Part shown: positions 31,421-64,000 of the stretch, piece by piece | Position numbering within the stretch: position 1 is the stretch's first letter | Layout: the number at the start of each line of letters is the position of its first letter | Assembly (NCBI GenBank): GCA_021513715.1 | Contig: CP084167.1 | Span: 2,176,001 to 2,240,000, forward strand | DNA length: 64,000 nucleotides | Source of the DNA: Candidatus Heimdallarchaeum endolithica | Lineage (GTDB): Archaea; Asgardarchaeota; Heimdallarchaeia; Heimdallarchaeales; Heimdallarchaeaceae | Direction of reading: 5' to 3' | Translations under genes and position numbers: made by a program | The notes under the pieces: generated by a model | Seen by the model: only the letters and a program-made list of their open reading frames with translations | Database searches by the model: none | What the model was told of the DNA's origin: nothing

Positions 31421-31488
31421 AAAAAGTCCAATGATAACAAGAACTCCAAGCAATGAAAAACAGAGAGTAAATAAAGAGAATAAGAGGG
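31421..31488 (+). repeat. 68-bp direct repeat, copy 2
   Basis: Matches 28665..28732; lies 15 bp beyond the stop of the 5326-aa gene. Confidence 0.92.
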
Positions 31489-31503
31489 AGGAGCCTATTG
31501 AAT

Positions 31504-34500
31504 TTATTTTGGTTTATTTTTTTTCATTTCTGTTGTTATTGCCTCCCATATCCTATAATAAAAAGTCATACCTAGTTTCACATTTTCATATTTTTGTATT
31601 TTATATCTTATATCTTGCGGATTTTCGTTGTAGTAATTTTTTATATCATAATAATTTTCTATTGTTCCGTATACATCTTCCCATATCAAGTATTCTTTGT
31701 ACATTGTTTTCAGTGCTTCTTCATAGTTCATTAATCCATATTTTGTTATTGGATAGATTAATCCTTTTTTTACATCATTGTTTTTCTTGTATGAAATAGC
31801 TACACGATGAAAAGTACCTCCTTCATCTTCTACAAGCTTTAAATTTAATTTATCGTATTTTTTATATAAACAAAACACATTCACTGAGTTAGTTAATTCT
31901 TCCATTGATATTTTTACTTCTTCTACATTTTCTTCTTCTGCTTTCATGTATGCTAGTGCTATTAAAGAATTCAACATTTCTATTGATATTCCCATCTCAT
32001 TTTTTGTTTCTCCAAAAAGTCCCTTTAGTCCTTCCGCTGTTACCAGGTAGTCTATTCTTCCATATTTTGTTATGTCTTTTTGTAAGTTTATTGTATCTCC
32101 TGTTTGTATTTCTCCTATTATTCCTTTTATTTTTTCCAACATCTCTTTATAGTGCTTATTGTATAGTTCTTGGTTTATTTCTGCTACTTTTTTCATTTCT
32201 TTATCTATTATTTCATTCATTATCTTTAGCACTTTTCTTGTTCCTTTTTCTCCCCCATGGAATGATATGCATATTGTATAATCATCTTTTGTTCTTTTGC
32301 TTAATTTTTTTGTTTGTATTATTTCTACGAATCTATAATTATTCACCTTATTTTCTTTTAATCTTATTAAAAACACCATGTATAAACTTCTTGTATCTTC
32401 TGTTACTTCTGGTATGTATACTCTTTCTCCAAATATACTCTTTAGTTTACTTCTTACTATTTCTAATTGCTCTTTGTACGTCTTATAATCTATTTTTTCT
32501 CCTTCCAGTTCTCCACTGTTTTCTTTGTTATACCATTTACCCAACTTTGTCTCTAGTATTATTTTTTCTATTATTGCTCTTATGTAACCGTTCTCGTTTA
32601 TCAAGAATTCCATATTCTTATCTAATACTATTTTATCTACATTACGCATTAGCGTTACCAGTTCACTTATTTTACTTTTTATTTTTACACTTCTTCCTTC
32701 ATTATTAGCGGTATATCTTACTATCTGACTTTTTATTCCTGGATTTTTCTTTGTTAATTGTGCTAACAGATCATCATCTTCTACTAGTAGTGTTTCTACT
32801 ACGTCTATTTCGTAGTTATATTCCTTTCTTCCTGTTGTAAAAATGTTTATTTCTTCTTCTGTTAACTGATCTTTAAACGCTTCGTAATAACCTATAGGTG
32901 TCAACACATTTTCTAGTATTTGTGCTAGTTTATTGTTTACTTCTGCTGGTGATATTGGAGAATTCACGTTATTTACTATTAAAAAGCTATTAACCATTTT
33001 ATTTATCCTTTCTTTTGGGTTAAACAGGCTAGCCATTTCTTTTAATCTTTTTAGTTCTATTATTCTCTCGTTTATTTCGTTTCTTAACTTTATCATTAAT
33101 TCTTCATCTATTTTTGCTTCACTTGTAAAGAGTATTTTTGCTAATTGTTCTACTATTTGATAATCTTCTTCCTTTGCTTTTTCTATTTCTGCTTTATCAT
33201 CCATTCTGTTTATTACTTCTAAATATTTTTTCATTTCTTCTACTGCATCATTTACATTCATAGGTCTTTTATCTATGATAATCTTGCCGTCCTTATTTAT
33301 ATCCATCTCTAATGCTAGGACATTTTTATTTTTCAAAAATTTGCTAAAATAAAGGGCATTATCAGATATCGCTTTCCATATTTCCGCTTTACTTAATTTT
33401 AGATTCTTTTCTAAAATTGTAAATGTATCATAGGTACTTACTTCTTGTATATTATTTAGTTGTTGTGCTAGATTTACGATTTGTTGTTCTTTACCTGTTA
33501 GTGCATTTTTCCCATTTAATTTTGAATTTATTGGCCAATAAATCATTTCTCCTTTACTATCCTTAATTATTTTTCCATCCCTATCTTGTAATATTAGCAC
33601 AGGTATCAATTCATTATTTTTCTCTATTACTACTCTTATTCGTGCCCAAGTATCTAGTCCTATACCATTTTTCAGTTCGATTTCTTTTCCATCAAAGGAA
33701 TATAGTTTATAATTTATAGGTTCACTTTTTTCTATCTCTGTAATTCTGTTTTCGTCAACTTTTAAGGTGTATTTTATATGTTCTGTTGGTATATAATCCG
33801 TTTTTATTATACGCACACTTTTTTCATCTTTAGCATATTCAGAATTGAAACAGTCTAAATATTCTGCTTTACTTACTACTTTTTCTTGACCATTTTCAAT
33901 AGTCGTATAAAATACAATAACATATCCTTTTGTATGTGATGTTATAAAATATGCTTTAGCATTCTCCCCGAAATCAGTCCTGAATTTTTCATTCAAGCTG
34001 TTAGTATCTATTACATTTAATATCCCTCTAACAGCTATTTTGAGACGTTCTGTGCTTTTTATTGGTTGAAATTGTAAGTATTTTCCTTTTGCTGTTATAT
34101 CGTTATTTTTCTTATCTACTACCTGTACATAATCTAGTAATGTTGAATAACCCGTGCTTGCATGATAGCTTATTTTATATCCTAGCATCGCCATAGCCAT
34201 TTCATCTGTTGTAATCTTGTTAGTCTGGCCACAGAAAAGGTAATTTACTACTCCTAACAGAGTTGAAAATATACCCGTATTACTAGCTATATTTCTTGGT
34301 CTATAATCCACTTCCTTCTTTATTATATGATTTAGTAATTTTGAAGTTAAATATGCTTCCTTATTTGTATAATCATATGCTAAAGGAAAATTGTCTAGCA
34401 AACCTGCAGTTAGATAGTATGCAAAATTATACTTCCCCTTATGTGTGAATGAAGTTTGTAAATCATTATTAGAAAGATACTTTAGTTCTACAAAGTTTCC

Positions 34501-37500
34501 CCCTGTTGTTATAAGATCTATCCCCACGTAATTTTCTGCTATTTTGTCTTGGGGGTTAATTAACTCAATAGTACTTTTTAAGATCGTATTTTTCAAGTTG
34601 ACATTAAAGGGTTTTTTTTCTCCCTCTTTTAGAGATTCTTTAATGGAAATAAATGGATTCTTAGAATCTAAAGTATTGTAAAGTATTTTATCTGTTTTTC
34701 TTAATAATTCTTTCAAGATGTTTATTGATTTTTCTGCTGCAACTTTGGTTGTGGATGTAGATTCTTTTTCTTTTATGTTTTCGAATAGTTTTTGTGTAAG
34801 TTCCTTGTATAAGAACATTCGTTGTAATAAGGTAAAAAGAGGAATAACAGACTTAAGTTGGGAGTGATAAGTAAATTCTTCAGTGCCATCTGTTGTTGGA
34901 TCAAACAGCTTAACTAGTAAACTTTGTCCATAGCCATTTTCTTTTAGCCAATTGAAAAATTTCACATCTAGGTTTTCTGAGAATATGTCTAGTAATTCTT
35001 CTTTATTTATTATTCCTGCCAATCTATCAGGAAGTTCAACGTAACGAATAAAAAATTCAGGAGATCTACTATGTGTTCTTTTTAGTTCTTTTATTGTTTT
35101 TTCTGTTATTTCTTCTAGTTCTTTTTCTGTTATTGTTGGATTCAGTTTTCTTTTCATTTCTTTTACATTTTCAATTGTTTTATCCCAATCTACGAATGAA
35201 TTACGAACTAAGCATATTCCTTCACTTTTTATTGCTTCAAAAACATTAAAATGATCCAACAGATCAAGACTTTCTTTAAAGGACAGTTTACTATCTATTA
35301 TCCCTGCTCCAGTGGTTTTCAGGTCTTGAATTTTATCTATTTTTGTTCCTTCTGGAGTAACTGAGTATACTGGGTATACTCCTTCATTTTGCACGTTTAG
35401 AGCCGTTATATAACTTAATGACAAGTATTTTAGTGGAGCCTCCATTATCAAATTTTGAGTGTTTTGCATTATCAATTGGGCTGTTACTCTTGATTTCAGC
35501 ATTAGTTCTACTAGTTCTTGTGCTTTTATTGGCTTTCCACTTAGCAGTTCGTTGTTTACCCATTTTCTGAGTACGAATGCCGCTACTACATCTATATCAG
35601 TTGCTTTGCTGAAAAGTTCTGCTGCTTCTTTTACTATTGTGTTTATACCCATTAAAGGTGCAGAATAAGTAAGAAGTAACAATTTCTGTGGTAGAAAAAT
35701 AGTAATTTGGGCAAAAGTGTTGACATATTTCAATAATCTTAGAGTGAGAGCAATTTTACCTCCACTATCTAAAAGACTCAAGAATTTGTTGCGTTTAGTG
35801 ATAAATTTAATTATCCGTCTTTCAGCAAAACTTCCAACATTGCTTATGAATCTTATAAAACCTTTTGTTGTTTTTGTTGTAATTCTTGAAGCTTTTGTCA
35901 TTGAATTCAATAAATCTTTTGTTGGAGATTGTGTAGGTGTGGGGGCAAAGAAACAAATAATATTGATAATATCCATTGGTATTTGGGATAAAGCCATTGC
36001 TCTAACAAAAGCGTCAGGAGCACAGACAGAGTCTCTTATATCAGCTAGCAAAGCTGTAACACTGAAAGTATTAACTAGCATTTCCCAGAAAGCTAAAGCT
36101 TCAAAATCGGAAAGTTTGGTCTTTTTTCCATTGAAATAGTGGAAGTAATCTAGGCTTACATACCAATCATAATCTCCAGAATCAGTTAGAGAAGGTACGG
36201 CTATAATGAAGTAACCATCATCAAAATCTTCATGTCCATCAGAATAAGCTTCTTGTACTGAATAGACTTTAATAGAATAAGGGCCATATTTCATTAATTG
36301 TTCTTTGAAATGGTAGTACATGTAAGCATCTCTTTTATTCATGTTGTAGTGTTCAGGAGTGTACTCTTCATTTGTCATCCAATCAATCATTTTCCAGTTA
36401 CCACTTTTTGCCCAATCTTGTAATATTTCCTCCATTTCGTAGTCAGGTACAAGGGGTAAATACTTAGAAGGTTCAGAACCATCACGTGGTTTAAGTTCTG
36501 GTTCATTTTTAACTAAAATGGAGTCGAGATACCAGTCCCAATAATCATTTATACAAAGCAATGATTTAGTTTTTTCGCTAGTGTCAAATATTTCTCCTTT
36601 TGCCAATCCTGCTCCACGGGTTGTTCCTAACATCAACCCCCAAAGCAAGATAAAAGTAGACTTCCATCCTCGATAATCTTCTTCAGAGAGGACAGAGTCA
36701 TCTCCATCATTACCTCTCCAATTACCAAATAAACCTTTGATCAATCCGCCAGAGCGGAAGAAAATACTAAACATCTGTTTAAGAGGGAGTAGAAAAGATT
36801 TCACTCCCATAGTGAATTTTGACCAACCTTTGAGCTCTTTGGTTCTATCCCAGAAAGTGAGAGGATAACTAGTGGTGAAATAGGTAAGGATGTCTGATGA
36901 ATGTATAGCAAACTCTATTATTCCTGCAGAAACATCATAGATAAGTGTACCATTCTCGTCATAAAACTCTGCGGGGATATCTTCCCAAGTATAATCTGCA
37001 CCTAGAATTTCATCAAAAATAGTCAAGCTCACCACATCTGTAGGTAAATCCATATCTACTAACATAATATTCTGGTGAAGATAAGCGATTGCGATCTGAA
37101 AAGAGCTAATGAAATCGTTTTTTACATTCCCATAAAGAGAGGGAAGAATGTTGGTGTTTGTCCACACTTCAGGAGTAGCTAATCCTTCTCCTATCGTGCG
37201 TTCTGTTGTTTCATTTATCCATTCTCTTACAAATTCGCAGTTATCTATTTGATTAGCGGAAGGAAGACCAAACATTGCGTTAGTATTATAAGCATATACT
37301 CTACCTCTAGTGTTAACCATCTCTAGACCATAGCTTTCTTTTGAAACTAGGTCAGTATGATAGGTGTAGAGAGTGTGGCTTTGTTCATCATAAATGTAGT
37401 TACGAGAATAAGTTTCATTTTTTTCCGTAAGGTATAAGTAAGAGGAATCGATTTTGGGTCTATACATTTCTAATTCAAAATTATCAAATTGGACAGTTGT

Positions 37501-40500
37501 GCGAAGAGCATAAGTTTGAGTCAAATTATTATTATAGTCTAACGTATTTTCAATAAGATAATCTTTTGTCAGTTTGAAATCAGTAGAGTTAAGAGGGTCA
37601 ATAAAGGTTAAAGTTTCTTTTTCTTCTTCTTTTTCTAAATCTATGGATATGGAACGAGCTTCAGAGATGTCGACATTAAGACTAGAGTTATATTGAGAAG
37701 AGAGATCGAGAGAGAGACCTGCAACTGTCTCTAAATGAATTTTATCTCTAGAACTTGTAGGTACACCATAACGGTATGCACTAGTAACAGGGTCAACCAA
37801 TGTTTCATTTGCTCCAGGAATAATAGAACAGTCTTCAATATCTGGGACACCAAAACCGTCGTAAAGTTTAGGTATCCACTCAGAATCTATTCCTGGGTCA
37901 TATTGACTGTTGTTGTTTCTATCTTGGAAATACCAGTATTCGACAAAACTGTACATTCCCACCAAGAAAGAAAAAGGTTGAACAAAGGAGTGACTTGTTC
38001 CCTTATCTAATACTATTGCATAATTCATCTGGAAAAGAAGAAATTTCCAGTTGTATTTGGTACCATTAGTAGGGGTGATAAGATTACCTTCTTCATCATA
38101 CCATTTCTTACCTTTGTATAATTCCTCAACTCCTGAAATACCAGTGAAGTAAACTCTCCAATGGTGGTATGTTCCATAGCTATCGACATAGAATCCTCCT
38201 TTGTAAACATTGTAGGGGTTGAGAGGAATAGTATCTATAGTTTGCATTTTAGAGTAGGCAAAAGTTTTAGTATCAGACTTTTTGCGAGTAAAATCGACTT
38301 CTAGTTGGTTATTAAACCGAATAGTATTTTTAGCTAAAACATTAGAATAGTCGACATGCACTTCATCAGGTTCTACAAAGTTGTGAATTAAATCCCAACA
38401 AGGTTCAATTATTGCTCCAAAAAAGGCGTTTTCTTCACTTACACGTTCTAAGATTAGACTTATTTGATGAATGCCCTTTTTATTTAGGAATATGGTAGAA
38501 GGAGGAGAACTGTAGTGATCTAAAACTGAACTTTCATTTACTTCTCCTTTTGCTACTCCTGCCCACAAAGCAACTTCGCGGTTATCCCTTATATCTCCGT
38601 ATACTTCCCAAGGTTCAGTTTTTCTATTTAACCCTTCACTATTGAGAGGAATAAGTAGTTTATCTCCGTAAAAGGTTATTTCATTCCACATAGCTTCGTT
38701 GTCCATAACTAAGGGGATACCATCAATCATCAACTGTTTAATAACTATTGTTTCATGAGTAAAAGCGATGATAAGTTCGCTTTCATTTATATCTTGTGTA
38801 AAGTCTACACAAGTAACAAGGGCTACTTGTTGTCCCGCATGAACAGAATAAGGCAATTCTCCAAGACTGAAAACTCCATATTCATCTTCTAAACTTATTT
38901 TTTCAAAAACGAAACGTTCTTCATTATTCAAGAGAAAAGTTTCTCCTTCCAAAGGCATAGTTCGAGAAAGTAGATGAGTTATAGCTGCTGTCGATTCCCC
39001 GTCGTTGTAATAAGCATTAGAGACTAACCACTCACGTATACGGTTATTATTCTCTCCTGCATTAAGTTGTACTATTCCATCGCTCATATAACTTATTCTT
39101 ATTTTCTTGGGGAAAGAATAAACAGGAAAGATAAGGTGAAGGAATAAAGGAGTGAGTTCAGTTTGAGGGGTGAAGAAACGAGTAGATGAACCCATTCCTA
39201 GTTCTTGTTTTTTCATTATAGTTGCAAAACCTGTGGAAAGGACAAATATACCGTTTGTTTCTATTTCAAAAAAGACTTTACTTGAAGTGAAATCAGAAGT
39301 AAGATAAAGAACAAGATCGTAAGTTATGTGAGTTTGATTGTCTATAAACTCATGATAAACGAATACTTCATCCAGATTTATCCATCCATCAAGAGAGACG
39401 TTATATTGTTGCCATTTTAGTTCTCCAACAAAAGATTGAGTGTCTTTATTTACTGCAGAAACTCTAGCTCCAGCATAAGGATATCTTCCAGCTACTAAAT
39501 TGTTATATACACGAAATTCAGTGAGGTAGAAGGTTGTGTCAGGAGTAACGGTGAACTCTACTTTTTGTTTTTCCGTTGAAAATCCTCCGTATCCATAGTC
39601 GGCATAAGTTTCATATTCTGAGAGATCAAAGGAAGCAGGATAAGTGTCAGTCTTCTTGATGTAAAGAATAAGTTGGAAAAGATCTATTCTGAAATAACTC
39701 CACTTTCCTTCCTCTTTTGTACAAGTAAGAGTAACAGTGAAAAGGTTACTTTGTGAATCGTAAGAATATGCTCCTGTATCTCGTTCAGAATCATTCATAC
39801 CAAAATTGAGAGTGAGTAAAACGGGGTATCTCTCGTTAGTATGTATATCTGTAAGGAAAAAGGGAGTGTCGAAAGTAATATTTCCTTTTCCTTTGGCAAA
39901 TCCTTCTAGTACAAAGTTCTCTCTTTTATCTGGTAGAGGAAGATAACCACCGATAGGTAGAGAGAATTTCGTTACTTTCTGTTGTAACTCTTGGTCATGA
40001 ACAATTTGCTGTCCTCCCGTGTATTTGACTGGGACATATTTAGCGCTCTCGTAGTCGTTTACTTGTGGAACATAAAGGAAAGAAGAGGCATGCTGCTCAT
40101 TTTCTATCATAAGGTGAAATATCGCGCTAATACGTTTGGAAGTGAGAGTAATTCGTAAAGGTTTCTTGTAATCGAACTCTGTTTCAAAAGTATAAGTATA
40201 CTTTCTCCGCTCCAAAGAAGAAGAGATTTGTTCCCACTTCAGAGTCTGAGTCTCGCTTGTTCTATGTTGATCTGTAACGGTTACTGAAACTTCAGAATAG
40301 ATATCATAAACGGTACATCCGAAAACGGTTATAACGACTTTCTTGAGTAACTTGTTTTTTATGCTTGTCGCTCCTGAAAGGTCTTCCTCTTTAACTATTT
40401 TTTCATCTATTTGGTCGTCATCAAAATCTTCTTCTATTCCTCCAAAATATAGATCATCTATTTCTGTTAGACCAGCTCGACTGTGTATTTCGAAAGTGAA

Positions 40501-53400: not shown

Positions 53401-56400
53401 GATATATCATTTCTATCATTTACCAGAACTGATATTTCGTCTAAAGCACTATCATATGGAATCTCATTTCCCAAAGATCCAGGTTCTCCATGAAGATAAT
53501 CACTATAAGTATAACTTGTGTATAATCTAGGCTGAACTGAATCAGTAACATTAAAGTAAATGGTTTTGACTTGTTCATTATTATAGTAAGAAAGGTCAGA
53601 AGCCTTAATTTCAATAGCAATATAAGAAGCATAAGTTTGTATCCAATGTCCATTCTCATCAAGGACGAAATCGTTAACTGTAACAGAAGGAGTTATTGAG
53701 AAAGTATATCCTTCATTAATTATTCCTAAATCTGCAAGAATAGGAGATTCAATATACTTCTCGTTAAAGTGGTCATATTTTTGTGTATAAATATAATACT
53801 TTACACTCTTTAATTCTGCTCCTGAAATATCTGTTAAGCCTATCTCAAAATACCATGTTGTATCATCAGCACGAATATAGTCTCGACTATCTGGCATGCG
53901 AGGATAATCTATCCAGCAGTCTATCTGAGGAGGAGAAAAATCGTCTACTACTATTATCCGAGGTATCTCTGAACTATCTACATCTAATCTTAAGTCATAA
54001 AAAGAAACTTTGAAATTATAAGAAGACTGAACAACAGTCGAATTAATTTTGAAGACAATTTTGAAATTTTTAACCATCATATAATACTGTGAATTATCTT
54101 CTCCATAGGTATAATTTTCATCACTCCCCCATGAGAGAGGGATAGATAGGAGAGTACGATAATGTTTGATAGAATATAGAGTGATATCATCACTTTCATT
54201 ATATTTAAAGACTAATAGTTCTGTACCGTTAGTAGATGTAGCATAAATTTCATCTACATAAATATAGGAAATGTTAGTAGAAGTTGTATAGTTGAGTTCT
54301 GCATCAATAACTAAATCGCTTATTCTATCACTCAAAATATATGGAATGTTATTAGTTTCTTCAAAATCATTTGTTTGTAGTGTAATATAATTTGTAGTAA
54401 GCATTGTAGAGTAAGAATGACGATTATACCTGGTACTATAAGAATAAGATAAATTGTTACTGAATGGACTTTCGCTTTTCTTCATCCAGCCCTCATAATA
54501 TTGTGGTAGTTGGAAAAGAATGTATCCAGTACCGTTGTTATCCACGTTCTTTGTAGCAGAAATATGATAATGAAGATTAGAATAACTTGAAGCGGTGGAA
54601 ACACTTTTTTCATTATCAAAAATGTACCAATCAATCGTGTTGGGATTTACTGAAATAGAACGATGAATAAGATTATTATAATCATTTAACAATTCTATTA
54701 TGATATTTGTCTGTATTAATGTTCCATTATAGAAGTATTCTGTATTATTAACCCAACTAATTTTTGTTTCGCTTATTAATTCTCTCCAAATATTGTGTTG
54801 TTCCTTAAAATCTTGAACAGTTGTAGAATAGTAAGAACTTAATTCATTTAAGAAATAATTTTCAGTGCTATAATCTGTTCTTGAAGAATTTAATATAATC
54901 TCAAAGTCTAGCCCTTCAGGAAGGTTTACCAAGTCGTTAAGATCTATATCGATAACGGGAGCATTACATTCAGTATCAAAATAATAATCATTAATTATCT
55001 GTTTATTATTAGGCTTAATAAAGAAATCAACAAAATCAAAATATAGTTTTTCATGTAATTCTGGATAGACATATTCAGGTACTGAAGGATCAACCCATTC
55101 ATACAGGGGTTTGAGTAAATCGCCTGTTCTTTTATAGAAATCATCATATATTTTACCGTATAATGCAGAAAAAGACATATCTTTTATTTCAAAATGATTG
55201 AATTCGTCAAAAGTTATGAACATCCAGCTATATCTATTTTTATTATAAGTGTCAATTATTGTGCTATTAGACCATGTAATTGAGGAAAGATAATCCATCG
55301 GTGGCATCGTACTGTTTCCACTATCGATCAGCAATTTTTCCGAAGGAGTGAGACTTTCATAATATACATCATAAGCATCACATACCATTTCTTTAAGCTT
55401 ATAATGAATGCTTAAAGGATTAGTAGGAAAGGGTTCGAACCAACTTTCAGAATAGTGAGACATTAGATCCAAATATGGTTGTTCAAATTGCGGACCTGAA
55501 TAAGCTTGATAATCACTTATATTAGTTTCATAAAATTGAAGCATTAAACTTCCTTGATAGTCTATTGAGAATTTGGAAGCAAAGTAAAGAGGGTTATAAT
55601 ACCCATTTCTGAAATTTACAAAAGTAGGTAGAGAGAAAAGAAGAGCAATTCTTCGAGGTAAGGTTTTATCAAAAGGACTATCTTCTGGATAGGCAAAAGT
55701 CCGTAAATTCTTATCTTCATCAACGTATAAACAAGGTAATAACCTGTTTCTTGACGATTCCGTTGTATCTTTTGTTTCTTTGATAGCTATATAGTTCCAC
55801 TTTGTTATCTCAGGATTTATTGATAGTTCTTCTGTCACATTAGCCAAAAATTGGTCTATTTCAGTGGAAGTATAATATTCTGTTCCTTTATCATGAATGA
55901 AACGATACAAGTTTTGGAAATCGTCAAAATCTTGATGAGCTGACTGATCTATACTGTAAAATATTCCATAATTACGAATATTGTAAACGTCAAGATAATA
56001 ATTATATTTTGAATCACCATCTTGAACAAAAGACCATAGTCCACTTGTTTCATTATATTCTGTTTTAGGAACAACTTCTACAATTATATCTCTATATTCA
56101 TAATTACCATTTATTCCCATTTTTATTAGTCCAGGGTGAGTATAATACCCCGAAGCGACCGATTCATAGGAATTATAAGGTAATGAAATAGGTGCACTCA
56201 AATTGAAAGTATAAGGATAAACATTGTTTGTAGGTTTAACTGCCCATAATTGTATTTTCTCTATTGTATTGGTATCAAAATCTATTATTGTATCAACAAA
56301 ATTGTGGTAGAGGTTTAAAGGTATTTTAAGATAATGTACGGGTTTTGAAGTAAATAATGGCTCATTTTCACTTGTTACATTCAATTCATATTTCAGATGT

Positions 56401-59400
56401 AGTTTACCATCCCATAATCTTTGTAACCCACTCGTTGGCTCTAAATAGGGATATAATTTCTTTTCCCATGTGTTAAACGTATCATCATAATTTACAGCTC
56501 CTCCCCCGAAATCTACTGCAAAAGTATCCCAATATTCTAATCTATTAACAGCATAAAGAGCGTTTTTTGTATATTCATCTATAGAAGTTGATGAAAAATC
56601 CCAAGAAAAGAATCTTGGTGTTCCTGAAACATTAAGAATAAAATGACTATTAATTACAGGAAACTCTTTATAATTTCCAAGATCTATAGAATATTCTTCA
56701 TATTGTATATTTGCACGTTTAAGGATCTTGGGATTTTCTAAAATATCAGGAACCGAATACCAATTAGGTAAAGCATTACTTCCTTGTCCTCCATAATAAT
56801 AAAATTGTTCTGTATTTCCCGCTCCATCGATACATTCTATATAGTAAGTTGTCACAGAACCTAACCCTTCTGTTTCAACAGTAAATGTTTGAGAGAAGGT
56901 GTGCACTCCATCTGTTAAATCAGAGTCTATCAACTCCACAAAACCACTATTTATACCGTTCTTCCAATATAGAATTGCAGAAATAGGTGTGGTGTCTTCA
57001 TCTACTGTTATTGTCACTGTAGCGTTATAAGGTCCTGTGGGATAGGTTTCAAAGTCGGTATTCGTTATCAGATCTCCTCCTGTAAGTATAGGATTAGTTA
57101 TGTCTCGAATACGAACAGCTGTAGGAATGACTTTGGTCATGTAGTTTCCATAAACATCACTTGCAGAAATGGTGAAACGTAATTCATCGTTATTTGACCA
57201 ATATGAAGCTTGAGGGATAATGAAAGTATAATAGGTAATATAACCGTCATAATGTGTTTTTGCCCAATCAATTATTGCAATATCATCATCTACATTTGTT
57301 ATGGCTGTACTTAACTCTCCGTTATCTGGATCAATATAACTATAAGGAGTGAACTCATAGTGATGATACTGTAGAGAAACAGAATGAATGTTACTTGCGT
57401 CATAAATCCCAAAAGTTACTTCTCCATTTTTTTTAGTGCTAATAAAATGAACAATTTGACCTTTATACTCATCTTCATTTTCGATCTTGAATAAAGTATC
57501 CGTATGGTCATAATTTTCTATTTCTACAATTTTTGGTTTAACATGGTCTAATAATTGTACATCTTGAGTGGAAGTAGAAAAAACATTTCCTACCCAATCA
57601 GCAACAACAACATAGTAGTGTAAAGTTCCAGAGTGATTGAAAAACCCAAATGAAGGAGTAGTAATAGTGTCATTTGTTATAGGAGTAACAGAATCATAAT
57701 TTGTATATTCGTAGGTGAATTTTTCTCCAGTATCTAAATACCAGAAGAATTGGACATAAGCTATTCCACTATCCACATCTTCAACAGTAACAGTTATGGT
57801 AGCTGTTTCATTATATTCCATTGAAGTAAAAGTACTGAGAATTATAGCATTAGGCTTATTATATTCTTCTACAAAAATAGTGTAACTGTTACTTATCCCC
57901 AAATTCTCATATGAGTCTAGTGCTGTGAACCAATAAGTGATTAAATCTCTATATTTTAACAAATTTTCAATATTATAATCGAAATAATATACACTTGTTA
58001 TTTCATCTTTATAACAATCTGCTATCTGTTCTGATAAATACTCATAATATGTCCCATCTGTTACATTATATCTATCTATTTTATAATGTACTTGGATATT
58101 GAAAACGTTAGTAGTATCATGTATAGCTGAACTAAACCTTATATTTTTATCGTTTATATCTATCCCAAATATTTTAGCTACATCAAATGTAGGTGCAACT
58201 CCATCTATTACAAGAATACTGTTATTTTCTTTTGGTTCATATGAAACATAGTTTCTTCCATCACTTGCTTTGATAATATAATGTAAATCCACACCTACTT
58301 TTACAGGTTGATGAGAACCATAATAATAAACAAAATCGTGATCTAATCTTTTATCGTATTTATTATTATTCGTTCCTCTTTGGTATAAACGTATAGAATC
58401 TATAATAATTGTATCATTGAAATGGAAAACTTCTCCAATAGGCTCGATTTTTATATAAAACTTGTTTATGATACTTTTTGTTACATCAAAATTATAAAGA
58501 CATGAAGTAGTTTGATTAGTTGATATATCTACATCTAGGTTATATGACGAGTTATAACAATAGTTATTATATCCTTCATCTATATATTCCCAGAATATGC
58601 TATCTGTTTTATTGAATTCTGTATATAATCCTGTAATTCTAAAACTTTTTCCGCTGTCTGTCCTGCTATTTATTACAAACTGATTCCATTTAGAGAGAGA
58701 GACAGGTTTTTCAGTTATTACTTCTATCCATGCTTCTGATAAATTATTATTTAAAAAGAGTTTTAATTTACTATTTCCCTCTTCTTCTATTTCTTGTATA
58801 TAACTAAAATACGAAGAACTCAATCTTAACCCATCATATATTATAGAACCATAATTTGATAAATTAAGATTGATAGAATTAAGCTCCTCAAAACTTATCC
58901 CATCATCGCCGTATTGATAATATTGGAAGTATTCTGTATCATCTCTCAGAAGTTGATACCCAGCTAAATAGTCATCATAAAAATAAGCTGTTGCACTTAC
59001 TGTTTTAAAATTATCTTGTATAGCTACTTTGATATTTACTTCATCTGTTTCTTTTACACTAGTTTTTGGTGTAATCTTAAAATTACTTAACTGTAATCCA
59101 CTAATTCCGCCAGAATAAAATCCAATTTTTCCATTAAGTATTAAAGGTGAATATTTTTCTAAATCCAATATTTTTGAATTTCCATTTAAAATTGATACTT
59201 TCAATAAATCATTATATATCGATCCATTGAGCGTATACTTCAAACTATTATCCCTAACCCAATCAACACTTTCCAATAGAGTTAGTGTATGATTATAAAC
59301 ATAAAATAATTGTAATTTATCTACAGATTGTATATCTCCTGAATAACCTACTTGATCCAGTGTTACAATGGAATTTGTATGCGCCAATAAATAATATTCA

Positions 59401-60911
59401 GGAATACCATCTGTTTTTCTATATTTGAATATTAGACCAAACATTCCATCTGATGTAGGTTTAATATCTATATTGAAATCAAAATCGTCATATGTATGAT
59501 TCACTGTAGATGATAAAATGCAATAATCCCAATCATCATTATTAACAGTTAGTATACCATTTTCATAATACCAATCATCAATTGAATGCGTTCCAACACT
59601 ACTAGTATCTACATTGGTATATTCCCATTCTGTAAATGGTAAAGGAGAACTATTAGAAAGAGATGAAAAATCATATTCTTGTCCCAATTGTGTCCATGGA
59701 CTATATTCAGTAGAAAGAACTTCTGGTTCACTATTATCATTAATACTTATTTCCTTAATGAAGGATTCTTCTCTTGTTTGAGTATTATTGATAAATCCAT
59801 TAGAATCATAGTTTATTATTTGATAACGGATGAGTAAAGAAACTGTAGCTTTTCCTGGATAAACAATAGGTTGTGTGGTTGTTCCATTGAAATAATATTT
59901 TTGCTTTGTAGATTCAACTATCGGAACGTTGTAAATATACTGTTCAAAAGGAGTGTTCTCATTTATTGAAAAATTGGCATAAACTGCTGATATCTTTATA
60001 TCTGTTCCATTAACTGGCCCATCTGCACCAGGAAGAACAGTGGAATAATATGAATCTTCTCTGTAGAGGATTCTGCAACTGATGGAGATATTTTCATCAA
60101 TAGAAGGATAATAAGGAATAGTACGAAACTCTTCTAAATACGGTTTATCTTCTATTACTGGAATATAAAGGTGTTTACTTTCTCCTTCTTGTCCATAACT
60201 ATCTGTTGCATTAAACCATATTTCATAAGTATCCCCTTCATTGAATTTACTTTTATCTGCAGAAAAAGTAAAAGTAAAATTGTTTTCACCAATTTTTGTT
60301 GCTCTCCCCTCTAAAATTATTTCATTATTTATTTTTGATACCGCATCTACTTTCTCACTCCCATCATCCTCTAATCCATCTTCATCATAAACATTAAAAT
60401 TGATTGTTTTAGATTCTCCACCTATTATAAAAAATTCAGGAATATTTTCAGGAGGAATATAGATCTCTGGTGAACCATCTGCTACAACAGTATAATCATA
60501 GATTAACGATTGAGCATAATTGTGATTAGTTGTTGAATCATTAACTTCAATGAAATATCTTACATTAGTATTTGGTTTATATTTGCCTAAACTAACTGCA
60601 TAGGTTTCTATCCTTGTGTCATTGCTAAAAGGAGTAAAAACATATTCCATTTCTTTTTTATATTCCACTCCATCTACAAAATAGATCAAGTATATTTCTC
60701 CTATTCCCGTCTCATCTTTAACGGTAGTAACAACAGTTACTCCCTCGAACTGGTTAGGTATATGTGGAAAATGGTAAACTTTCAGAAATTCAGGAGGAGA
60801 AGTGTCTACAATCTCCCCCTTCACAAGATCCAATCCATTCAAAGAAGAGATAAGAAAAAGAATAATAGTTACAAAAGTTAAATACTTTATTTTTTTATTT
60901 TTCTTCTTCAA
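47484..60911 (-). CDS. Giant 4475-aa surface protein: >20 Ig-like repeats, lectin-like inserts, C-terminal TM anchor
   Basis: Signal peptide; recurring D-x-x-x-P linkers (DTSPP, DGVAP, DITNP, DKYAP, DKTPP, DLTKP); TM helix LLLPLLVSGSLLLVTITLIII followed by a basic tail; stop overlaps the next start. Confidence 0.88.
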   Translation of the reverse strand: MKKKNKKIKYLTFVTIILFLISSLNGLDLVKGEIVDTSPPEFLKVYHFPHIPNQFEGVTVVTTVKDETGIGEIYLIYFVDGVEYKKEMEYVFTPFSNDTRIETYAVSLGKYKPNTNVRYFIEVNDSTTNHNYAQSLIYDYTVVADGSPEIYIPPENIPEFFIIGGESKTINFNVYDEDGLEDDGSEKVDAVSKINNEIILEGRATKIGENNFTFTFSADKSKFNEGDTYEIWFNATDSYGQEGESKHLYIPVIEDKPYLEEFRTIPYYPSIDENISISCRILYREDSYYSTVLPGADGPVNGTDIKISAVYANFSINENTPFEQYIYNVPIVESTKQKYYFNGTTTQPIVYPGKATVSLLIRYQIINYDSNGFINNTQTREESFIKEISINDNSEPEVLSTEYSPWTQLGQEYDFSSLSNSSPLPFTEWEYTNVDTSSVGTHSIDDWYYENGILTVNNDDWDYCILSSTVNHTYDDFDFNIDIKPTSDGMFGLIFKYRKTDGIPEYYLLAHTNSIVTLDQVGYSGDIQSVDKLQLFYVYNHTLTLLESVDWVRDNSLKYTLNGSIYNDLLKVSILNGNSKILDLEKYSPLILNGKIGFYSGGISGLQLSNFKITPKTSVKETDEVNIKVAIQDNFKTVSATAYFYDDYLAGYQLLRDDTEYFQYYQYGDDGISFEELNSINLNLSNYGSIIYDGLRLSSSYFSYIQEIEEEGNSKLKLFLNNNLSEAWIEVITEKPVSLSKWNQFVINSRTDSGKSFRITGLYTEFNKTDSIFWEYIDEGYNNYCYNSSYNLDVDISTNQTTSCLYNFDVTKSIINKFYIKIEPIGEVFHFNDTIIIDSIRLYQRGTNNNKYDKRLDHDFVYYYGSHQPVKVGVDLHYIIKASDGRNYVSYEPKENNSILVIDGVAPTFDVAKIFGIDINDKNIRFSSAIHDTTNVFNIQVHYKIDRYNVTDGTYYEYLSEQIADCYKDEITSVYYFDYNIENLLKYRDLITYWFTALDSYENLGISNSYTIFVEEYNKPNAIILSTFTSMEYNETATITVTVEDVDSGIAYVQFFWYLDTGEKFTYEYTNYDSVTPITNDTITTPSFGFFNHSGTLHYYVVVADWVGNVFSTSTQDVQLLDHVKPKIVEIENYDHTDTLFKIENEDEYKGQIVHFISTKKNGEVTFGIYDASNIHSVSLQYHHYEFTPYSYIDPDNGELSTAITNVDDDIAIIDWAKTHYDGYITYYTFIIPQASYWSNNDELRFTISASDVYGNYMTKVIPTAVRIRDITNPILTGGDLITNTDFETYPTGPYNATVTITVDEDTTPISAILYWKNGINSGFVELIDSDLTDGVHTFSQTFTVETEGLGSVTTYYIECIDGAGNTEQFYYYGGQGSNALPNWYSVPDILENPKILKRANIQYEEYSIDLGNYKEFPVINSHFILNVSGTPRFFSWDFSSTSIDEYTKNALYAVNRLEYWDTFAVDFGGGAVNYDDTFNTWEKKLYPYLEPTSGLQRLWDGKLHLKYELNVTSENEPLFTSKPVHYLKIPLNLYHNFVDTIIDFDTNTIEKIQLWAVKPTNNVYPYTFNLSAPISLPYNSYESVASGYYTHPGLIKMGINGNYEYRDIIVEVVPKTEYNETSGLWSFVQDGDSKYNYYLDVYNIRNYGIFYSIDQSAHQDFDDFQNLYRFIHDKGTEYYTSTEIDQFLANVTEELSINPEITKWNYIAIKETKDTTESSRNRLLPCLYVDEDKNLRTFAYPEDSPFDKTLPRRIALLFSLPTFVNFRNGYYNPLYFASKFSIDYQGSLMLQFYETNISDYQAYSGPQFEQPYLDLMSHYSESWFEPFPTNPLSIHYKLKEMVCDAYDVYYESLTPSEKLLIDSGNSTMPPMDYLSSITWSNSTIIDTYNKNRYSWMFITFDEFNHFEIKDMSFSALYGKIYDDFYKRTGDLLKPLYEWVDPSVPEYVYPELHEKLYFDFVDFFIKPNNKQIINDYYFDTECNAPVIDIDLNDLVNLPEGLDFEIILNSSRTDYSTENYFLNELSSYYSTTVQDFKEQHNIWRELISETKISWVNNTEYFYNGTLIQTNIIIELLNDYNNLIHRSISVNPNTIDWYIFDNEKSVSTASSYSNLHYHISATKNVDNNGTGYILFQLPQYYEGWMKKSESPFSNNLSYSYSTRYNRHSYSTMLTTNYITLQTNDFEETNNIPYILSDRISDLVIDAELNYTTSTNISYIYVDEIYATSTNGTELLVFKYNESDDITLYSIKHYRTLLSIPLSWGSDENYTYGEDNSQYYMMVKNFKIVFKINSTVVQSSYNFKVSFYDLRLDVDSSEIPRIIVVDDFSPPQIDCWIDYPRMPDSRDYIRADDTTWYFEIGLTDISGAELKSVKYYIYTQKYDHFNEKYIESPILADLGIINEGYTFSITPSVTVNDFVLDENGHWIQTYASYIAIEIKASDLSYYNNEQVKTIYFNVTDSVQPRLYTSYTYSDYLHGEPGSLGNEIPYDSALDEISVLVNDRNDISSVNLEINVDRFDISPDFELVSITDLHLELEEIGGEPVKYYVSGSAYKKYKNSSVNIYELLKSKYNSIAPEHVQFRYIVEDVYGNSISSQYYDIYYKDTYGPEVTWLTLQGEAGGEPDPNVGDLVLSAKVRDAAYEDDINSNNGNLTVFALIDLFVQETVWLWDDLNYFFVPSISLVGEGNTGSPGRYIFGDWATKIDLFLLECKAITIEEIDNGIYDHVLYYDITLIAGTNDEFIDYWDNSLGSRVDIPEGTGPDSVSEVKATDRFGNEGTVNSMNIVLADNRLEWSSTPQIISGHKLEGVENAIHGFHNLKVKLLNDPSSNLPFIEHYNGAFPVDLYKRVSVWAGEDWNEIINEVAYPNVIEGTECIFEVDHIGDSRINVGDKVKLEIFAKQTIEVDDGQGGIVYVDLYSKDPFELEFKITDKYAPEIANFHPESIPNFINGTNISFYVIEDIALLDTSNTIIGIWSDLSDFTTQQNELFPQLSITKVNNTHYFVETTVNASLWHEILDDNSKYAVHITIDDGVNILNTTIRKYITDAQGPSLSLFLNDPSSDSRYDFDTNIKILATDDNVIGENDVHFKYQDYTGLWSDWGVATFIQGIDNIYTFSFIIPKGSHPTPMILNIIVKASDIHGYETITSKSFDLVDKRAPDYKTNIPTGVGILFNPIVAGANDIQEPYDPSIAITYQGKTHIVILATDISGINLCSSVVEIQFSTDGSNWGSIYSFSIGICADFDLDDYNSTGQWVERYWKAYDITIEASLFDSADFIVGNYIRIRPKIVDINDNVQTQYYYDTQIKDGSPSLLSVHLTNPVVTEGGEVDYYNPPKVTVDLSTPYTFEYITVYLRRSSDNVLFSSSTFDTFNPSTGLYEGDFPQLDLSYVGINFYIDVYVYCSILDGYDENTKSNNKLIINSVSGEGTNNPLSFLITEYLPPLADEIDAQIVVYQDTSQIKIPVYDDTTTLTSTNVVSIKYDDVSQPTQDMSYSGTVVGTEPHPTNSSWQMIVANIDGSIFNIGDKVALAITLQDNCGNTATYRLDNNDDINDDTGLGYRINQASPTVTITSSYSNNEINYASDIDITFSVQHEDGDYNTQYRYSIESGSYTEWTSATGSSGTYSFTIPKTEYRIDEYINIEVRASDETGTYFGTDSVSLHAVDKEPPSGIVFKESPDGAVKDVGEDLSFDCKISDEITPYPYMDYQYRYKNENDDWTTWQTDGTLLEDNYYSITIPGQITTGTYIVEVKGTDEAGNSATYSFDYIVSDKTPPTIDFTPPNGVSNNEAYDLKISYFISDNYVNIEPSMVTFSYKENGEGTAHYRTVHSGSLEDEFYSYIDNAILNYEDTFSITITASDGINLVEITDSFTVSVDATNPSGSNPSVDDSTPVYGSTIELSINVFDDGGVSTLYTKYKCYYKHPGESSFTNYVYGTITTTPEDTKTPTFTLSNLKWYSGAWDVKFTYTDAHGHSGSYTWNDAFTVIDNIKPSVTKPISSSGNTIDVGHSTYIRADFSDLSSLASGLDLAGTPPNRVCYIKHKDPSGNWVYHSISHYSGNTYQVYFVPDSSYSGKLIEWRAVAYDKAGNVQTSSAFYLQVNEVHYAPSIISVWAYGYNDRTMNDLFYARVHAKCSTDNINYIQIRYGPTTSSYTTTSSGISRYSGTARDGYWQKQLTGGDRIGERVYFKYRVRNDYGQYSSWSSWKYVEYKGLFGAMDLELKVEEIEFNESRKTLTVKFNKAFASENYRPFIILKVDQYTTRKLILTPLDEEGKTYILPLSSLIDSYEIDTLEYMFTIENWFGRIWSSEDYSLYISDLTKPKIVKVVYADYYSVGEQITINAKIVDKNIKEIKILFLSPTEKGWKVIKTKNMKEMLSSFFLIGFKAKNSPGYYIQIIARDKNLNEQVSEIYRIIVNLSSSQKYSLLLPLLVSGSLLLVTITLIIIKKPKLLLKAKFFLTSNWSTLSQTRGRKFSHFFKSFGGKK

Positions 60912-60913
60912 TT

Positions 60914-63031
60914 CTAACCCCCTCCAATCCCTTTTCTTCTAAAAAGAATCCATAGTATTGCCCCTATACTAATTACCCCTACACTAACAAGGGTAATTTG
61001 AACGATTAGACTATCGCTTATTTTTTGTTTTTCTTCTATGATGGTAAAATTCCACGTCCGCGTATATTTCCACTCTTCTGACCAAGAACTATTGGAACTT
61101 TTGACAGTAAACTCTAACGTGTGCTCTCCTATTTCTAAACCTGAATAACTGAAATAATAACGTGTTTCTTGCGCTTCAGCGGTTATATCTCCTCCATCTA
61201 AAATAAGGCTAGGAAGACCGTTACCATAAGAGATGTTAAGGTAAAAGCTTTTTCTAGTCGTGTACTCTTGAATGTTGGTTTTATGCACTATCACCCAAGC
61301 TCGACGAGAACTGATGAGTGAACCTTGAATGTCAATAGCTTGACTATCATTCATTGAACGAAAAACAAGATACTTGATTTCACCATAACCGAATAAATTA
61401 AACGTCTTCTTCATATTGCTTGTTAAAGAAACATCTTCTACTATTAGGTCTCCATCCTCATCTGTCTGCTCAGAGACGAGAGCAACGACTGCAGTTATAT
61501 TTGTTTCTACATTAATAGTATAGTTATATTCTTCTCTAGTTTGTATGGCGTAAACTCTTACAGCATCACCATTTTTGCGGTCTAAAACAGTTTGAAAATT
61601 AACCGTATCACCAATATTCTCAATAGCTAGCTCTATGGGTAAACCATATTGGTATATTCCCCACCCTTCAAAGTTATCTTTTCCAAAATAATCTTTAGTA
61701 GGCTCAGGATAATTATAATAAGCTGTTCCAGAGGATTCGTAGGTGTGTAATAAAATAATTTGCTTTACTTTTGCTACTTTTTCCCAGGTATACTCCCAGT
61801 TAGAAGCAGTCATAGACAAAGCAACTGCAGATATGTATGCACAAGATAGATCTGGAGAAGCTTGAGGGATTACATCATATTCGTTTTTAGCATCTGCAAC
61901 TAGAGCATATTGTGTATAACCCATTGATCCCCCGAAAGCCATGAGATCAGGTTTTAAGCCATAATAGGTGTTACCGTGAGCTGAAGGTTCAATTTTTCCA
62001 TTTTTATTTGCATTTCCTACAGTTATAGCTTTTTTAGCTGTTCCAGGAGAATTAATATAAGAGTTAGACCCTTCGTCACCAGATGTAGCAACAACCACTA
62101 GCCCTTCATCAGCTAACTCATTAATTTTATCATCTATATTCATAACTTGTGAATCTAACCTAAAACTAAGGTTAACTACGGTAATGTTATATTGCTCTTT
62201 GATCGTTTTCAAGTAATCTAGAGCATCTAAAACAGTATCATATGTCGTTTTTCCTTCATCATCAAGAACTTTTAGCGCAATTATTTTTGCCCCAGGACAA
62301 ATACCAGTATATTCCTCTAACAAGGGATAATGGATTGTTCCGTTAATGTATGCACCGTTCTCTTCATCTAAATTACCAACACTTAATTCAAGATATCTTG
62401 TTTTTTCTTCTTTGCTAGTATAAACATAGTGATATTCTCCAGTATCCACCCTAACAGAATCTATATTTTCTATTCCTCTTCCATCCACAAGAAAAATTCT
62501 TATTTCTATCCCTTCTTCCCAATGAAAAGAACAGTCTAAGGTTTCATTAGGTCGAAGATAAAATTTTTTTACAGGAACAAAGTATCGTGGTTCAGTATAA
62601 AAAGAGAAACTATAATTTAAGGCTGAATTGTTCTTACCTGCAATAATAGAAGATACGGCAGTTCCATGTCCATTAACATCAGTTGGCTCATCATAAAGGT
62701 CATTTTCTTCATCAACAGATGAACCTACAAAATCTTTCCAATGAACGAGCTGTTCCTCATCAAACATAAAATGGTTAAGGTTTATTCCCGTGTCCAGTAT
62801 AGCCACAGTCTTATTTCCTGGATCTAACTTTATCCATTCATCTTCTGTTAATTTTCTTACGTTTTTTCCTGAACTTGATTCCTTTGAATTGAGAATATTT
62901 TGTCTATCTTCTCTTTCATCCTCAATATAAGAATATGAATCATTCTCTATATTTATTTGATAAATCGAACTTACGCTTGAAAAAAATATCAGGACTATAA
63001 TAATTGTTATTGCTAATTTGCTTTTTACCAT
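60914..63031 (-). CDS. Membrane-anchored S8 subtilase-fold protein, probably catalytically inactive
   Basis: Signal peptide, ILDTGI, HGTAVS, KPDLMAFG; the GTSMA motif is replaced by SPDLS; C-terminal TM followed by RRK. Confidence 0.85.
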   Translation of the reverse strand: MVKSKLAITIIIVLIFFSSVSSIYQINIENDSYSYIEDEREDRQNILNSKESSSGKNVRKLTEDEWIKLDPGNKTVAILDTGINLNHFMFDEEQLVHWKDFVGSSVDEENDLYDEPTDVNGHGTAVSSIIAGKNNSALNYSFSFYTEPRYFVPVKKFYLRPNETLDCSFHWEEGIEIRIFLVDGRGIENIDSVRVDTGEYHYVYTSKEEKTRYLELSVGNLDEENGAYINGTIHYPLLEEYTGICPGAKIIALKVLDDEGKTTYDTVLDALDYLKTIKEQYNITVVNLSFRLDSQVMNIDDKINELADEGLVVVATSGDEGSNSYINSPGTAKKAITVGNANKNGKIEPSAHGNTYYGLKPDLMAFGGSMGYTQYALVADAKNEYDVIPQASPDLSCAYISAVALSMTASNWEYTWEKVAKVKQIILLHTYESSGTAYYNYPEPTKDYFGKDNFEGWGIYQYGLPIELAIENIGDTVNFQTVLDRKNGDAVRVYAIQTREEYNYTINVETNITAVVALVSEQTDEDGDLIVEDVSLTSNMKKTFNLFGYGEIKYLVFRSMNDSQAIDIQGSLISSRRAWVIVHKTNIQEYTTRKSFYLNISYGNGLPSLILDGGDITAEAQETRYYFSYSGLEIGEHTLEFTVKSSNSSWSEEWKYTRTWNFTIIEEKQKISDSLIVQITLVSVGVISIGAILWILFRRKGIGGG

Positions 63032-64000
63032 TTCTCTTTCACCTATTACCTAAAACGATTATTTTCTCCTTAAACTGATTATTCTCTAATTTATTTTTAA
63101 ATGAGGAAAAAAATTCAGAATATTCAGACTGGAAAAGTTTTGACTCTATTCTATAATTCTTATACGAAAAAACAAGTGTAGTGATTCTTTTTTGTTCTAG
63201 TTCTGTTTTAGTTAGAACACCTCTTCTTAATAAACTGACCATTTTTCCACCTGAATATAAATAGAGTAAAAAGGGAGAGTGTAGAAAGTGAACAATGTCC
63301 ACTTTCTATTTGTTTTTGTTTGCCCATATCCACAGAAATCCCTATTGGGTCTAAAAGGAAGTCAATTTTCTGTATCAGAAACAAGGCAACATGAGCCAAT
63401 TTAGCACTACTCAAGTACTTGGGGTTGGTATTAGACAAGAGTTCGTATCCAAATTGACTCATAAAATGTACGCTTATCGTTCTCTTTAAAAAGCTAACCC
63501 CTATATATAAAGATGCACAGAATTTAGATATTTGACTATTTAAAAAAAAATATTTAGATTCCCATAACAATGTGTAAATATAATGCTCTTCCGCCAAAAA
63601 TGTTATGTTCAGAAGGTGAAAAACTATTTCCATTTTTTTAGAAATACCACTATCTTTTATATAAAAATGTGTATATGTAAAACACTTTTATAAAAAAAGT
63701 TATTCTCGGAAGGTAACAAAACGTTCTATATTTTCAAGAAAAGTCAATCCCATCCCTTATACTGATATATAAACATATGCACGAGGCTTGTAAAAGGGAC
63801 AAAAATGTACAGTATAAGGTATAAAGATCATATTTCAAAAAATAAATTGAAATTAATAAATATTCAATCATCATTTACTTATATTATTAATAGTCAAAAT
63901 TTCTATAGTTTTCACTATATGTATTTAAATATTAATTTCACAATAGTGATCTACATGCCTTTAGATGATAAAACAAAAGATGAAATTATCAAGTCTTTCA

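Follow-up and report, generated by a model that had tools for sequence, protein, structure and literature searches.

A coupled operon of giant surface proteins in a Heimdallarchaeal aloposon, with an exchangeable, sequon-free C-terminal cassette

The stretch of DNA analyzed here (the window: 64,000 nucleotides, genome positions 2176001-2240000 of the single-contig, 3.33-Mb circular genome of Candidatus Heimdallarchaeum endolithica, 30.8% G+C) contains the surface-protein operon of a published mobile element, the HeimV2/aloposon element, and the proteins of that operon, two of them giants of more than 4,000 residues, are the subject of this text. Aloposons are described as tandem genes for proteins of 3,000-6,000 amino acids (aa), named 'Otus' and 'Ephialtes', with a MinD/ParA gene upstream and a tRNA downstream, and a 44-kb element of Ca. 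Heimdallarchaeum that carries an IbrA-like gene, 'HeimV2', has been related to them (Wu et al. 2022, PMC8813620). An earlier reading of this DNA by a model, hereafter the original prediction, linked it correctly to aloposons. The element itself is already published; the function of its giants is not, inasmuch as the part of that paper at hand assigns none to them, and to its description we add a cassette junction, a region devoid of glycosylation sequons, a pseudo-subtilase, immunoglobulin (Ig)-like repeats confined to the first giant, and a set of 68-bp repeats. The genome harbors three giant-gene pairs, A (the present locus), B and C, plus a region of decayed fragments.

All genes of the operon lie on the reverse strand. 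A 705-aa subtilase-like protein is encoded at 60914-63031, followed by giant 1 at 47484-60911 (4475 aa, with a TTG start codon) and giant 2 at 31504-47484 (5326 aa), and a small open reading frame (ORF) of 67 aa at 63039-63242, 8 bp upstream of the subtilase gene, is probably the first gene of the operon. The subtilase/giant 1 junction reads TAG-aa-TTG, leaving a 2-bp gap, and the giant 1/giant 2 junction reads TAATG, a 1-bp overlap of stop and start codons, with GGAGG located 8-10 nucleotides 5' of the start codon at both junctions. Because the 2-bp gap and the 1-bp overlap are each accompanied by GGAGG, translational coupling, which the original prediction had deduced from the spacing, is well founded, and the three exported ORFs that it named are real, the two giants having the sizes it gave. 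Judged from these junctions, the small ORF, the subtilase, giant 1 and giant 2 form a unit that is translationally coupled and, in its layout, co-transcribed. The 67-aa gene occupies the equivalent place in a sister contig (L050) and has a 46%-identical copy in element C. Element C, like three loci of another genome (G011), also shows the order of subtilase, giant 1 and giant 2.

Giant 2 consists of an acidic N-side, a set of hydrophobic helices at about residues 3600-3950, and a tail rich in lysine and glutamate, in the order that had been predicted. The N-side (residues 1-3850, 35935-47484, reverse strand) has an anchor or signal segment at residues 26-44, sequons at the expected rate and four DxDxDG-type motifs; comparison of ESM Atlas features gave weak concanavalin-like and carbohydrate-binding-module-like leads for it, with scores below 0.9. 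Relatives of giant 2 were found in 6 of the 31 genomes of the host's family, the present one included, with 1 marginal match elsewhere among 400 genomes of the phylum, and all are ORFs of 5,200-6,200 aa, except for frames of 1,199-5,287 aa that are cut by contig ends. The sole stretch conserved throughout this family is a hydrophobic block at residues ~3789-3850 (35935-36120, reverse strand), with the pattern AL..D(I/V)(R/K)D ... F.R ... QIP.D, in which the residues E, A, L, D, R, D, F, R, Q, I, P and D are invariant in 11 family members. It is flanked by a glycine-rich hydrophobic segment ~200 residues upstream and by an F-x-P-Q segment ~90 residues downstream. At the block the amino acid composition flips from secreted-like to cytoplasm-like, and the C-side that follows (residues 3851-5326, 31507-35934, reverse strand) is K/E-rich, mostly helical and without a recognized domain. 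This tail had been called basic in the original prediction, a description that does not hold, its net charge being about +1 over about 1,480 residues. A HMMER search with the last 1,200 residues retrieved 3 relatives among 1.84 billion representative proteins, all of them close kin.

The C-side behaves as an exchangeable cassette. Aligned with a sister allele (P0004, 5274 aa, on a 32,993-bp JGI contig equal in length to the contig that encodes the 83%-identical subtilase and a giant 1 of 90-100% identity), giant 2 is 82-100% identical up to about residue 3850 and 30-42% identical (about 36%) from ~20 residues past the block to the end, the break falling directly after the sequence ...QIPMDI.... 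The same step is seen between giant B2 and its orthologue in a congeneric genome (G015), where identity falls from 96% to 63%, and in two further pairs of family members, from 96% to 64-82% (L031/L032) and from 94% to ~60% (L030/L035), with milder steps in distant pairs. In the latter three close pairs the synonymous divergence (dS) rises 3-10-fold from N-side to C-side, from 0.086 to 0.84, from 0.12 to 0.37 and from 0.16 to 0.53, and the ratio of nonsynonymous to synonymous divergence (dN/dS) of the C-sides is 0.29-0.43. Because dS jumps while dN/dS is low, the C-sides are to be regarded as older functional alleles recombined onto near-identical N-sides, not as relaxed tails. Giant 2 is modular: its N-side of 3,850 residues evolves slowly, and at the level of sequence these comparisons show that recombination exchanges the cassette among strains, exactly at the block, and that the cassette is held under purifying selection. 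The search for conserved N-termini with swapped C-termini suggested in the original prediction therefore gave a sharp and positive answer, and the conserved, non-toxic C-termini that would have told against its proposal were not encountered, as the C-terminus diverges in all four pairs.

Fragments of other cassettes are found elsewhere in the same genome. Three orphan pieces, with a duplicated secY 5' end after each, lie at genome positions 1899217-1905803 between secY and a ribosomal-protein operon: an open frame of 1,159 codons that is 64.7% identical to the P0004 cassette and 33% identical to the resident one, a 175-residue piece that is 97.7% identical to the end of P0004, and a decayed piece upstream. 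These orphans are remnants of decayed earlier insertions in which the 3' end of a giant gene abutted the attachment site. The 1,159-codon frame, which is without an export signal, has regained 3 sequons. An orphan of the C2 cassette is located at genome positions 1204775-1205286, far from any giant gene, and matches the final ~170 residues of that cassette at 71% identity. Of four metagenomes, one sediment run (X2) covered the N-side at positions 36000-44600 at ~97% identity and steady depth, with the cassette (31400-35900) represented by short pieces of low depth; as far as contigs can tell, this weakly suggests that the sampled population carries another cassette allele.

A second property sets the C-side apart, namely the lack of sequons for N-glycosylation, N-x(not P)-S/T. 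Giant 2 has 40 sequons in residues 45-3511 and 0 in residues 3512-5326, where 14.3 are expected; the same residues contain 12 reversed tripeptides and 16 instances of N-x-A/G/V (16.8 expected). Across 11 family members, the C-sides contain 13 sequons against 125 expected, with 108 in the reversed control, and the N-sides contain 452 against 477; the depletion of the C-side is about 10-fold and direction-specific in all 7 lineages, with a shuffle P of no more than 4e-4 in 6 of the 7. The giants hold ranks 1-4 and 6 among the longest sequon-free runs in the genome, in which the ratio of observed to expected sequons (O/E) is 0.96 for soluble-like ORFs and 1.27 for ORFs with hydrophobic segments (membrane or secreted). 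A gene for an STT3/AglB oligosaccharyltransferase (5.4e-47) is located at 15100-17349 on the reverse strand, 14 kb from the element. Since sequons occur at a normal rate in neutral cytoplasmic sequence, it would appear that the cassette is exported, meets the glycosylation machinery and must stay unglycosylated. The original prediction had named a plain membrane anchor with a housekeeping cytoplasmic domain as the outcome that would overturn it, and the 10-fold depletion argues against a neutral cytoplasmic tail of this sort. As a separate observation, the last sequon before the sequon-free region, a G-A-N-x-S between the first hydrophobic segment and the block, is present in 6 of 6 C-type members (L012, L030-L033 and L035); if it is glycosylated, the loop that bears it would lie outside of the cell.

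The N-terminus of giant 1 is signal-like, and toward the C-terminus a transmembrane (TM) segment spans residues 4418-4436. Iterated profile hidden Markov model searches at E<0.01 detected repeats of ~100 aa, 18 in giant 1, 16 in B1 and 15 in C1, with none in any second giant. Against Pfam, the repeat gives sub-threshold matches to Big_13, Big_7 and Big_3, with Big_7 above the cut-off only in the paralogue C1, and the repeats are accordingly predicted to be Ig-like. Thus, the TM-anchored 4475-aa protein that had been proposed stands in size and anchor, its count of more than 20 Ig-like repeats gives way to at least 18, the number found at this threshold, and its Ig-likeness is founded on the sub-threshold Pfam matches together with Big_7 in C1. 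Each first giant also contains a sequon-free block of 720-1,243 residues, which in giant 1 spans residues 3501-4219 (48255-50411, reverse strand; 0 sequons against 9.2 expected, 10 in the reversed control, shuffle P 2e-4).

The subtilase matches Pfam Peptidase_S8 (2.8e-27) and has a signal-like segment at the N-terminus and a hydrophobic segment followed by RRKG at the C-terminus, with 14 sequons against 6.6 expected. Its Asp and His motifs are retained, but Asp stands in place of both the catalytic Ser (SPD for GTS) and the oxyanion Asn (SGD for AGN), such that the Asp-His-Ser triad and oxyanion Asn of an active S8 peptidase are incomplete. Both losses are shared by two otherwise intact orthologues (P0007, 83% identical, and P0008, 75%), which are followed by a giant gene after gaps of 2 and 20 bp, respectively. 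In contrast, 8 of 8 aligned relatives keep the DTG, HGT, AGN and GTS motifs; among them are the element C paralogue and the orthologues linked to giants in two other genomes (G011 and G012). The protein is thus a predicted pseudoenzyme conserved in this clade, and the anchored protease of the system at large is apparently active. The description of a TM-anchored dead subtilase in the original prediction is borne out as to the anchor and the lost residues and fails as a trait of the system, since inactivation is restricted to this clade. A known counterpart is the Bordetella FhaB/SphB1 pair, in which a giant exported adhesin is matured by a surface-anchored subtilase. Common to both is a membrane-anchored S8 protease encoded with a giant exported protein, the catalytic residues being kept in elements C, G011 and G012, in sister elements of which kind the active anchored subtilase probably processes the giants; the differences are that the protease of the present clade is catalytically dead and conserved as such, and that the giants have no sequence relation to FhaB.

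Searches for known domains and folds gave little. Pfam, NCBIfam and PHROGs, applied to all six giants and, for 10 family members, to the last 600 residues, returned only Big_7 in C1, and neither Pfam nor NCBIfam gave a match to CdiB or to two-partner secretion (TPS), FHA or VENN domains in the six giants; the operon includes no transporter gene. A motif scan over the 1,476 residues of the tail found no Walker A, HExxH, CxxC, metal-binding motif or internal repeats, and counted 11 His. PDB sequence and profile searches with the tail yielded noise only, and ESM Atlas features yielded no usable match. Nor did Pfam and PDB sequence searches detect a nuclease at the end of C2. AlphaFold2 (AF2) modeled residues 4127-5326 from a 4-sequence alignment with a mean predicted local distance difference test score (pLDDT) of 43.9, only residues ~4966-5266 reaching 60-87, and residues 3559-4134 from 11 sequences with a mean of 42.5. 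Foldseek found nothing in the PDB at E <= 0.001 for the model of residues 4127-5326, which is too poor to exclude a known fold. One candidate, a Pol-beta-type nucleotidyltransferase proposed by VIA for model residues 832-1085, was rejected, as its Z of 4.9-5.9 is under the tool's noise level and the invariant carboxylate triad is missing; the best Z of a wide VIA search was 6.3.

The reading of the operon that we favor, with a probability of roughly 0.45, is that of a contact-dependent apparatus in which giant 2 delivers or engages its polymorphic cassette at a neighboring cell. On this view the producing cell would thread the cassette outward, giant 1 would serve as an Ig stalk, glycosylated and presenting the effector, and giant 2 would reach the neighboring cell, where the hydrophobic block might enter a membrane. 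The cassette would then be delivered or engaged there, and candidate activities are those of a toxin, of a pilot or establishment protein for the element, or of a recognition determinant. Such logic would be that of CdiA/Rhs-type polymorphic effectors built on an unrelated archaeal scaffold and without a canonical immunity gene. Bacterial polymorphic toxin systems (CdiA-CT/CdiI, Rhs, MafB) generate C-terminal diversity by recombination (Zhang et al. 2012, PMC3482391). Such systems have been predicted in archaea as well. The resemblance extends to the great size of the exported protein, to an N-terminal part that is conserved and joined sharply, at a conserved motif (compare VENN and PxxxxDPxGL), to recombined C-termini, and perhaps to stand-alone cassettes, of which remnants exist. 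The present proteins differ in having no TPS, FHA, RHS or known trafficking-domain homology, in being encoded on a mobile element of a single-membrane archaeon, and in the size of the cassette, ~1,480 residues instead of 100-300, with no recognizable toxin domain, adjacent immunity gene or co-diverging partner.

A number of observations weigh against delivery at a neighboring cell. No toxin, nuclease or enzymatic domain was found in the cassette by Pfam, NCBIfam, PHROGs, PDB sequence and profile, hhalign or fold searches, which leaves the nuclease-like region of the original prediction without a counterpart. Giant 2 is followed not by an immunity-like ORF but by an 816-bp T-rich tandem-repeat spacer that ends in a 68-bp repeat, and other family members are followed by unrelated genes of the host. 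Element B and its G015 counterpart, the one pair comparable end to end, contain no segment that diverges along with the cassette: the latter is the only one at 65-83% nucleotide identity, all else being 85-100% identical, and because no other segment diverges in this manner, there is no obvious cognate partner. Of the polymorphic-toxin logic that had been proposed, the swappable C-terminal cassette at a conserved junction is therefore supported; a toxin domain, an immunity ORF and a co-diverging partner find no support. The orphan cassettes near secY, with their neighboring 5'-end duplicates, could amount to debris and not to a reservoir that is maintained. Furthermore, the argument from sequons to export of the cassette is an indirect one, and a topology drawn from marginal hydrophobic segments and two low-confidence AF2 models is tentative.

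The main rival is that the C-side is a host-range or receptor-binding tip, comparable to that of a tail fiber or mating adhesin and serving the element's own transfer, with which the giants would attach a donor cell or an element-carrying vesicle, and which would be swapped as recipients vary their surface. Phage tail-fiber genes are known for a conserved N-terminus, a swapped C-terminus, a sharp junction between the two, and purifying selection within alleles, a mosaic pattern that giant 2 matches. In tail fibers and conjugative adhesins alike, C-terminal receptor-binding domains are exchanged by recombination, and giant 2 shares with them the coding on a mobile element and the lack of an immunity gene. 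A tip would need neither an immunity gene nor a co-diverging partner, would make sense of an element that spends about 31.5 kb of its ~38 kb on these proteins and has no recognizable capsid or conjugation genes, and would lie outside the cell, as the lack of sequons implies. However, typical binding tips are beta-rich, unlike the C-side with its K/E-rich, cytoplasm-like composition and mostly helical structure; a binding surface would not need to avoid sequons completely, across 1,500 residues and in cassette types that are unrelated; and the conserved hydrophobic block with its invariant charged residues, which precedes the sequon-free tail, is left without explanation. A further difference from such mosaics is that no virion or conjugation genes were recognized at this locus. 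A tip is thus unlikely, if still the most credible of the competing explanations.

Lower in probability is a plain stop-transfer anchor with a cytoplasmic tail that binds partners of the element, such as the ParA/winged-helix module, and diverges to prevent cross-talk between the three co-resident elements. The cytoplasm-like composition of the tail, the presence of three related elements with distinct C-sides in one genome and of a ParA module in every element, and the persistence of an open 1,159-codon orphan frame without an export signal are all in keeping with this idea, which is nevertheless disfavored by the sequon data, as soluble proteins are not depleted (O/E 0.96) and C-sides of all 7 lineages are, about 10-fold. 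Nor do the proposed partners follow the cassette: the backbone of element A (ParA 90% and winged-helix protein 88% identical to those of C) does not co-vary with the A cassette, and the ParA module of B and G015 is 95-96% identical where the cassette is 65-83% identical. Much less probable again is a classical polymorphic nuclease toxin, in which one or more PD-(D/E)xK DNase domains in the tail would kill non-kin cells. The polymorphic architecture would suit such a toxin, and a hairpin-like motif, G-I-D-L-x8-E-x-K (D-x10-ExK), at residues ~4320-4335 is kept in 3 of 3 cassette alleles, but hhalign of the motif region against the element's own PD-(D/E)xK protein gave a probability of 0.6%, a second proposed motif is not conserved, and Pfam at E values up to 10 returned no nuclease family above noise (PBECR3, seen in a single member, scored 15.9 bits where the cut-off is 30). 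The scarcity of His, the lack of metal-binding and Walker A motifs and the lack of an immunity gene point in the same direction. The least probable explanation, by a small step, is ordinary envelope or adhesin cargo with a fast-evolving, poorly constrained tail; it would account for the lack of domain matches and for the low-confidence structure predictions, but not for a dN/dS of 0.29-0.43, which indicates constraint, for a sharp junction at an invariant motif or for the strong avoidance of sequons, and it is disfavored because relaxed constraint cannot raise dS 3-10-fold.

A bolder version of the contact-dependent apparatus, which we regard as rather improbable, is an element-encoded machine that passes a polypeptide of ~1,500 residues between Heimdallarchaeal cells, with the block providing membrane entry and the cassette serving either spread and establishment of the element, as a pilot or fusion-type protein, or kin discrimination. 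If true, it would represent a route of protein or DNA transfer unrelated to known secretion and conjugation, in the closest prokaryotic relatives of eukaryotes. If the cassette is in any form delivered between cells, the operon would constitute a contact-dependent interaction system of Asgard archaea carried on mobile elements, with a bearing on material exchange and competition in the relatives of eukaryotes. The aloposon giants in any case gain a defined anatomy, consisting of a stalk protein, a junction motif that is conserved, and a cassette that is exchangeable and free of sugar-attachment sites, as well as a population-genetic signature of conflict or recognition and a testable job in cell-to-cell contact. 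The sequon test is in itself a cheap and general flag for regions of archaeal proteins that are exported but unglycosylated.

The surroundings of the operon agree with the published description of HeimV2 and aloposons in the tandem giant genes, the upstream MinD/ParA set, the downstream tRNA, the IbrA-like gene and the overall length of ~44 kb. The tandem genes are those for the 4475-aa and 5326-aa giants, with their 1-bp overlap, and are matched by the two further pairs in the genome. Upstream, 4-7 kb past the window end, are genes for a 91-aa ORF, a 378-aa winged-helix protein and ParA (AAA_31, 4.8e-18) and a divergent winged helix-turn-helix (wHTH) gene, a module conserved in elements B and C; a PD-(D/E)xK gene is also found past the window end, and the wHTH gene is followed by a 16S rRNA gene. 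The tRNA gene, at 25239/25242-25334 on the reverse strand (Rfam tRNA, 51.5 bits; also called by ARAGORN), is 6.2 kb downstream of the giant genes and marks the far end of a 44-kb composite, the distance from tRNA to 16S rRNA gene. ARAGORN lists it at 25239-25334 as 'tRNA-???', 96 nucleotides long and with an anticodon of four bases; this archaeal tRNA may contain an intron.

A direct repeat of 68 bp is present in three copies (65/68 identity), located at 28665-28732, at 31421-31488, 16 bp past the giant 2 stop codon, and at genome positions 2245409-2245476, which is 5.4 kb past the window end and 24 bp from the 16S rRNA gene. Because these copies split the 44-kb region, the giant-gene unit measures ~38 kb, and the first two copies bracket a unit of 2.76 kb that holds the IbrAB pair; the repeats are probably the ends of the giant-gene unit, and those that bracket it are not recognizable as tRNA. 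Integration at a downstream tRNA site is among the published traits of aloposons. The pair itself, for which PHROGs gives phrog_2159 (6.6e-71), consists of an IbrA-like gene (PAPS reductase plus DUF3440 by Pfam) and an IbrB/ParB-like gene and occupies 28791-30687 on the forward strand, convergent with giant 2. In the spacer between them, at 30688-31100, a ~36-bp unit is repeated four times in tandem and a 10-bp unit (attttattct) occurs four times.

Comparison of the co-resident elements indicates that their parts have separate histories. The backbone of element A is close to that of element C (genome positions 2399227-2401895), with ParA 90%, the winged-helix protein 88% and the wHTH protein 86% identical, whereas the giants of A resemble those of B (26-35%) and barely those of C; because the backbone is near that of C while the giants are B-like, modules have been shuffled among elements. 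Upstream of giant B1 and divergent from it, element B additionally encodes a 460-aa protein with a signal-like N-terminus (genome positions 2358861-2360243, reverse strand). This protein shares 82% identity with the corresponding one in G015, and its region ranks second in divergence among the segments of element B. Just beyond the tRNA end of the present element, at 22749-24200 on the forward strand, lies a TnpB/Cas12f-like ORF with a Cas12f1-like TNB domain (5e-10).

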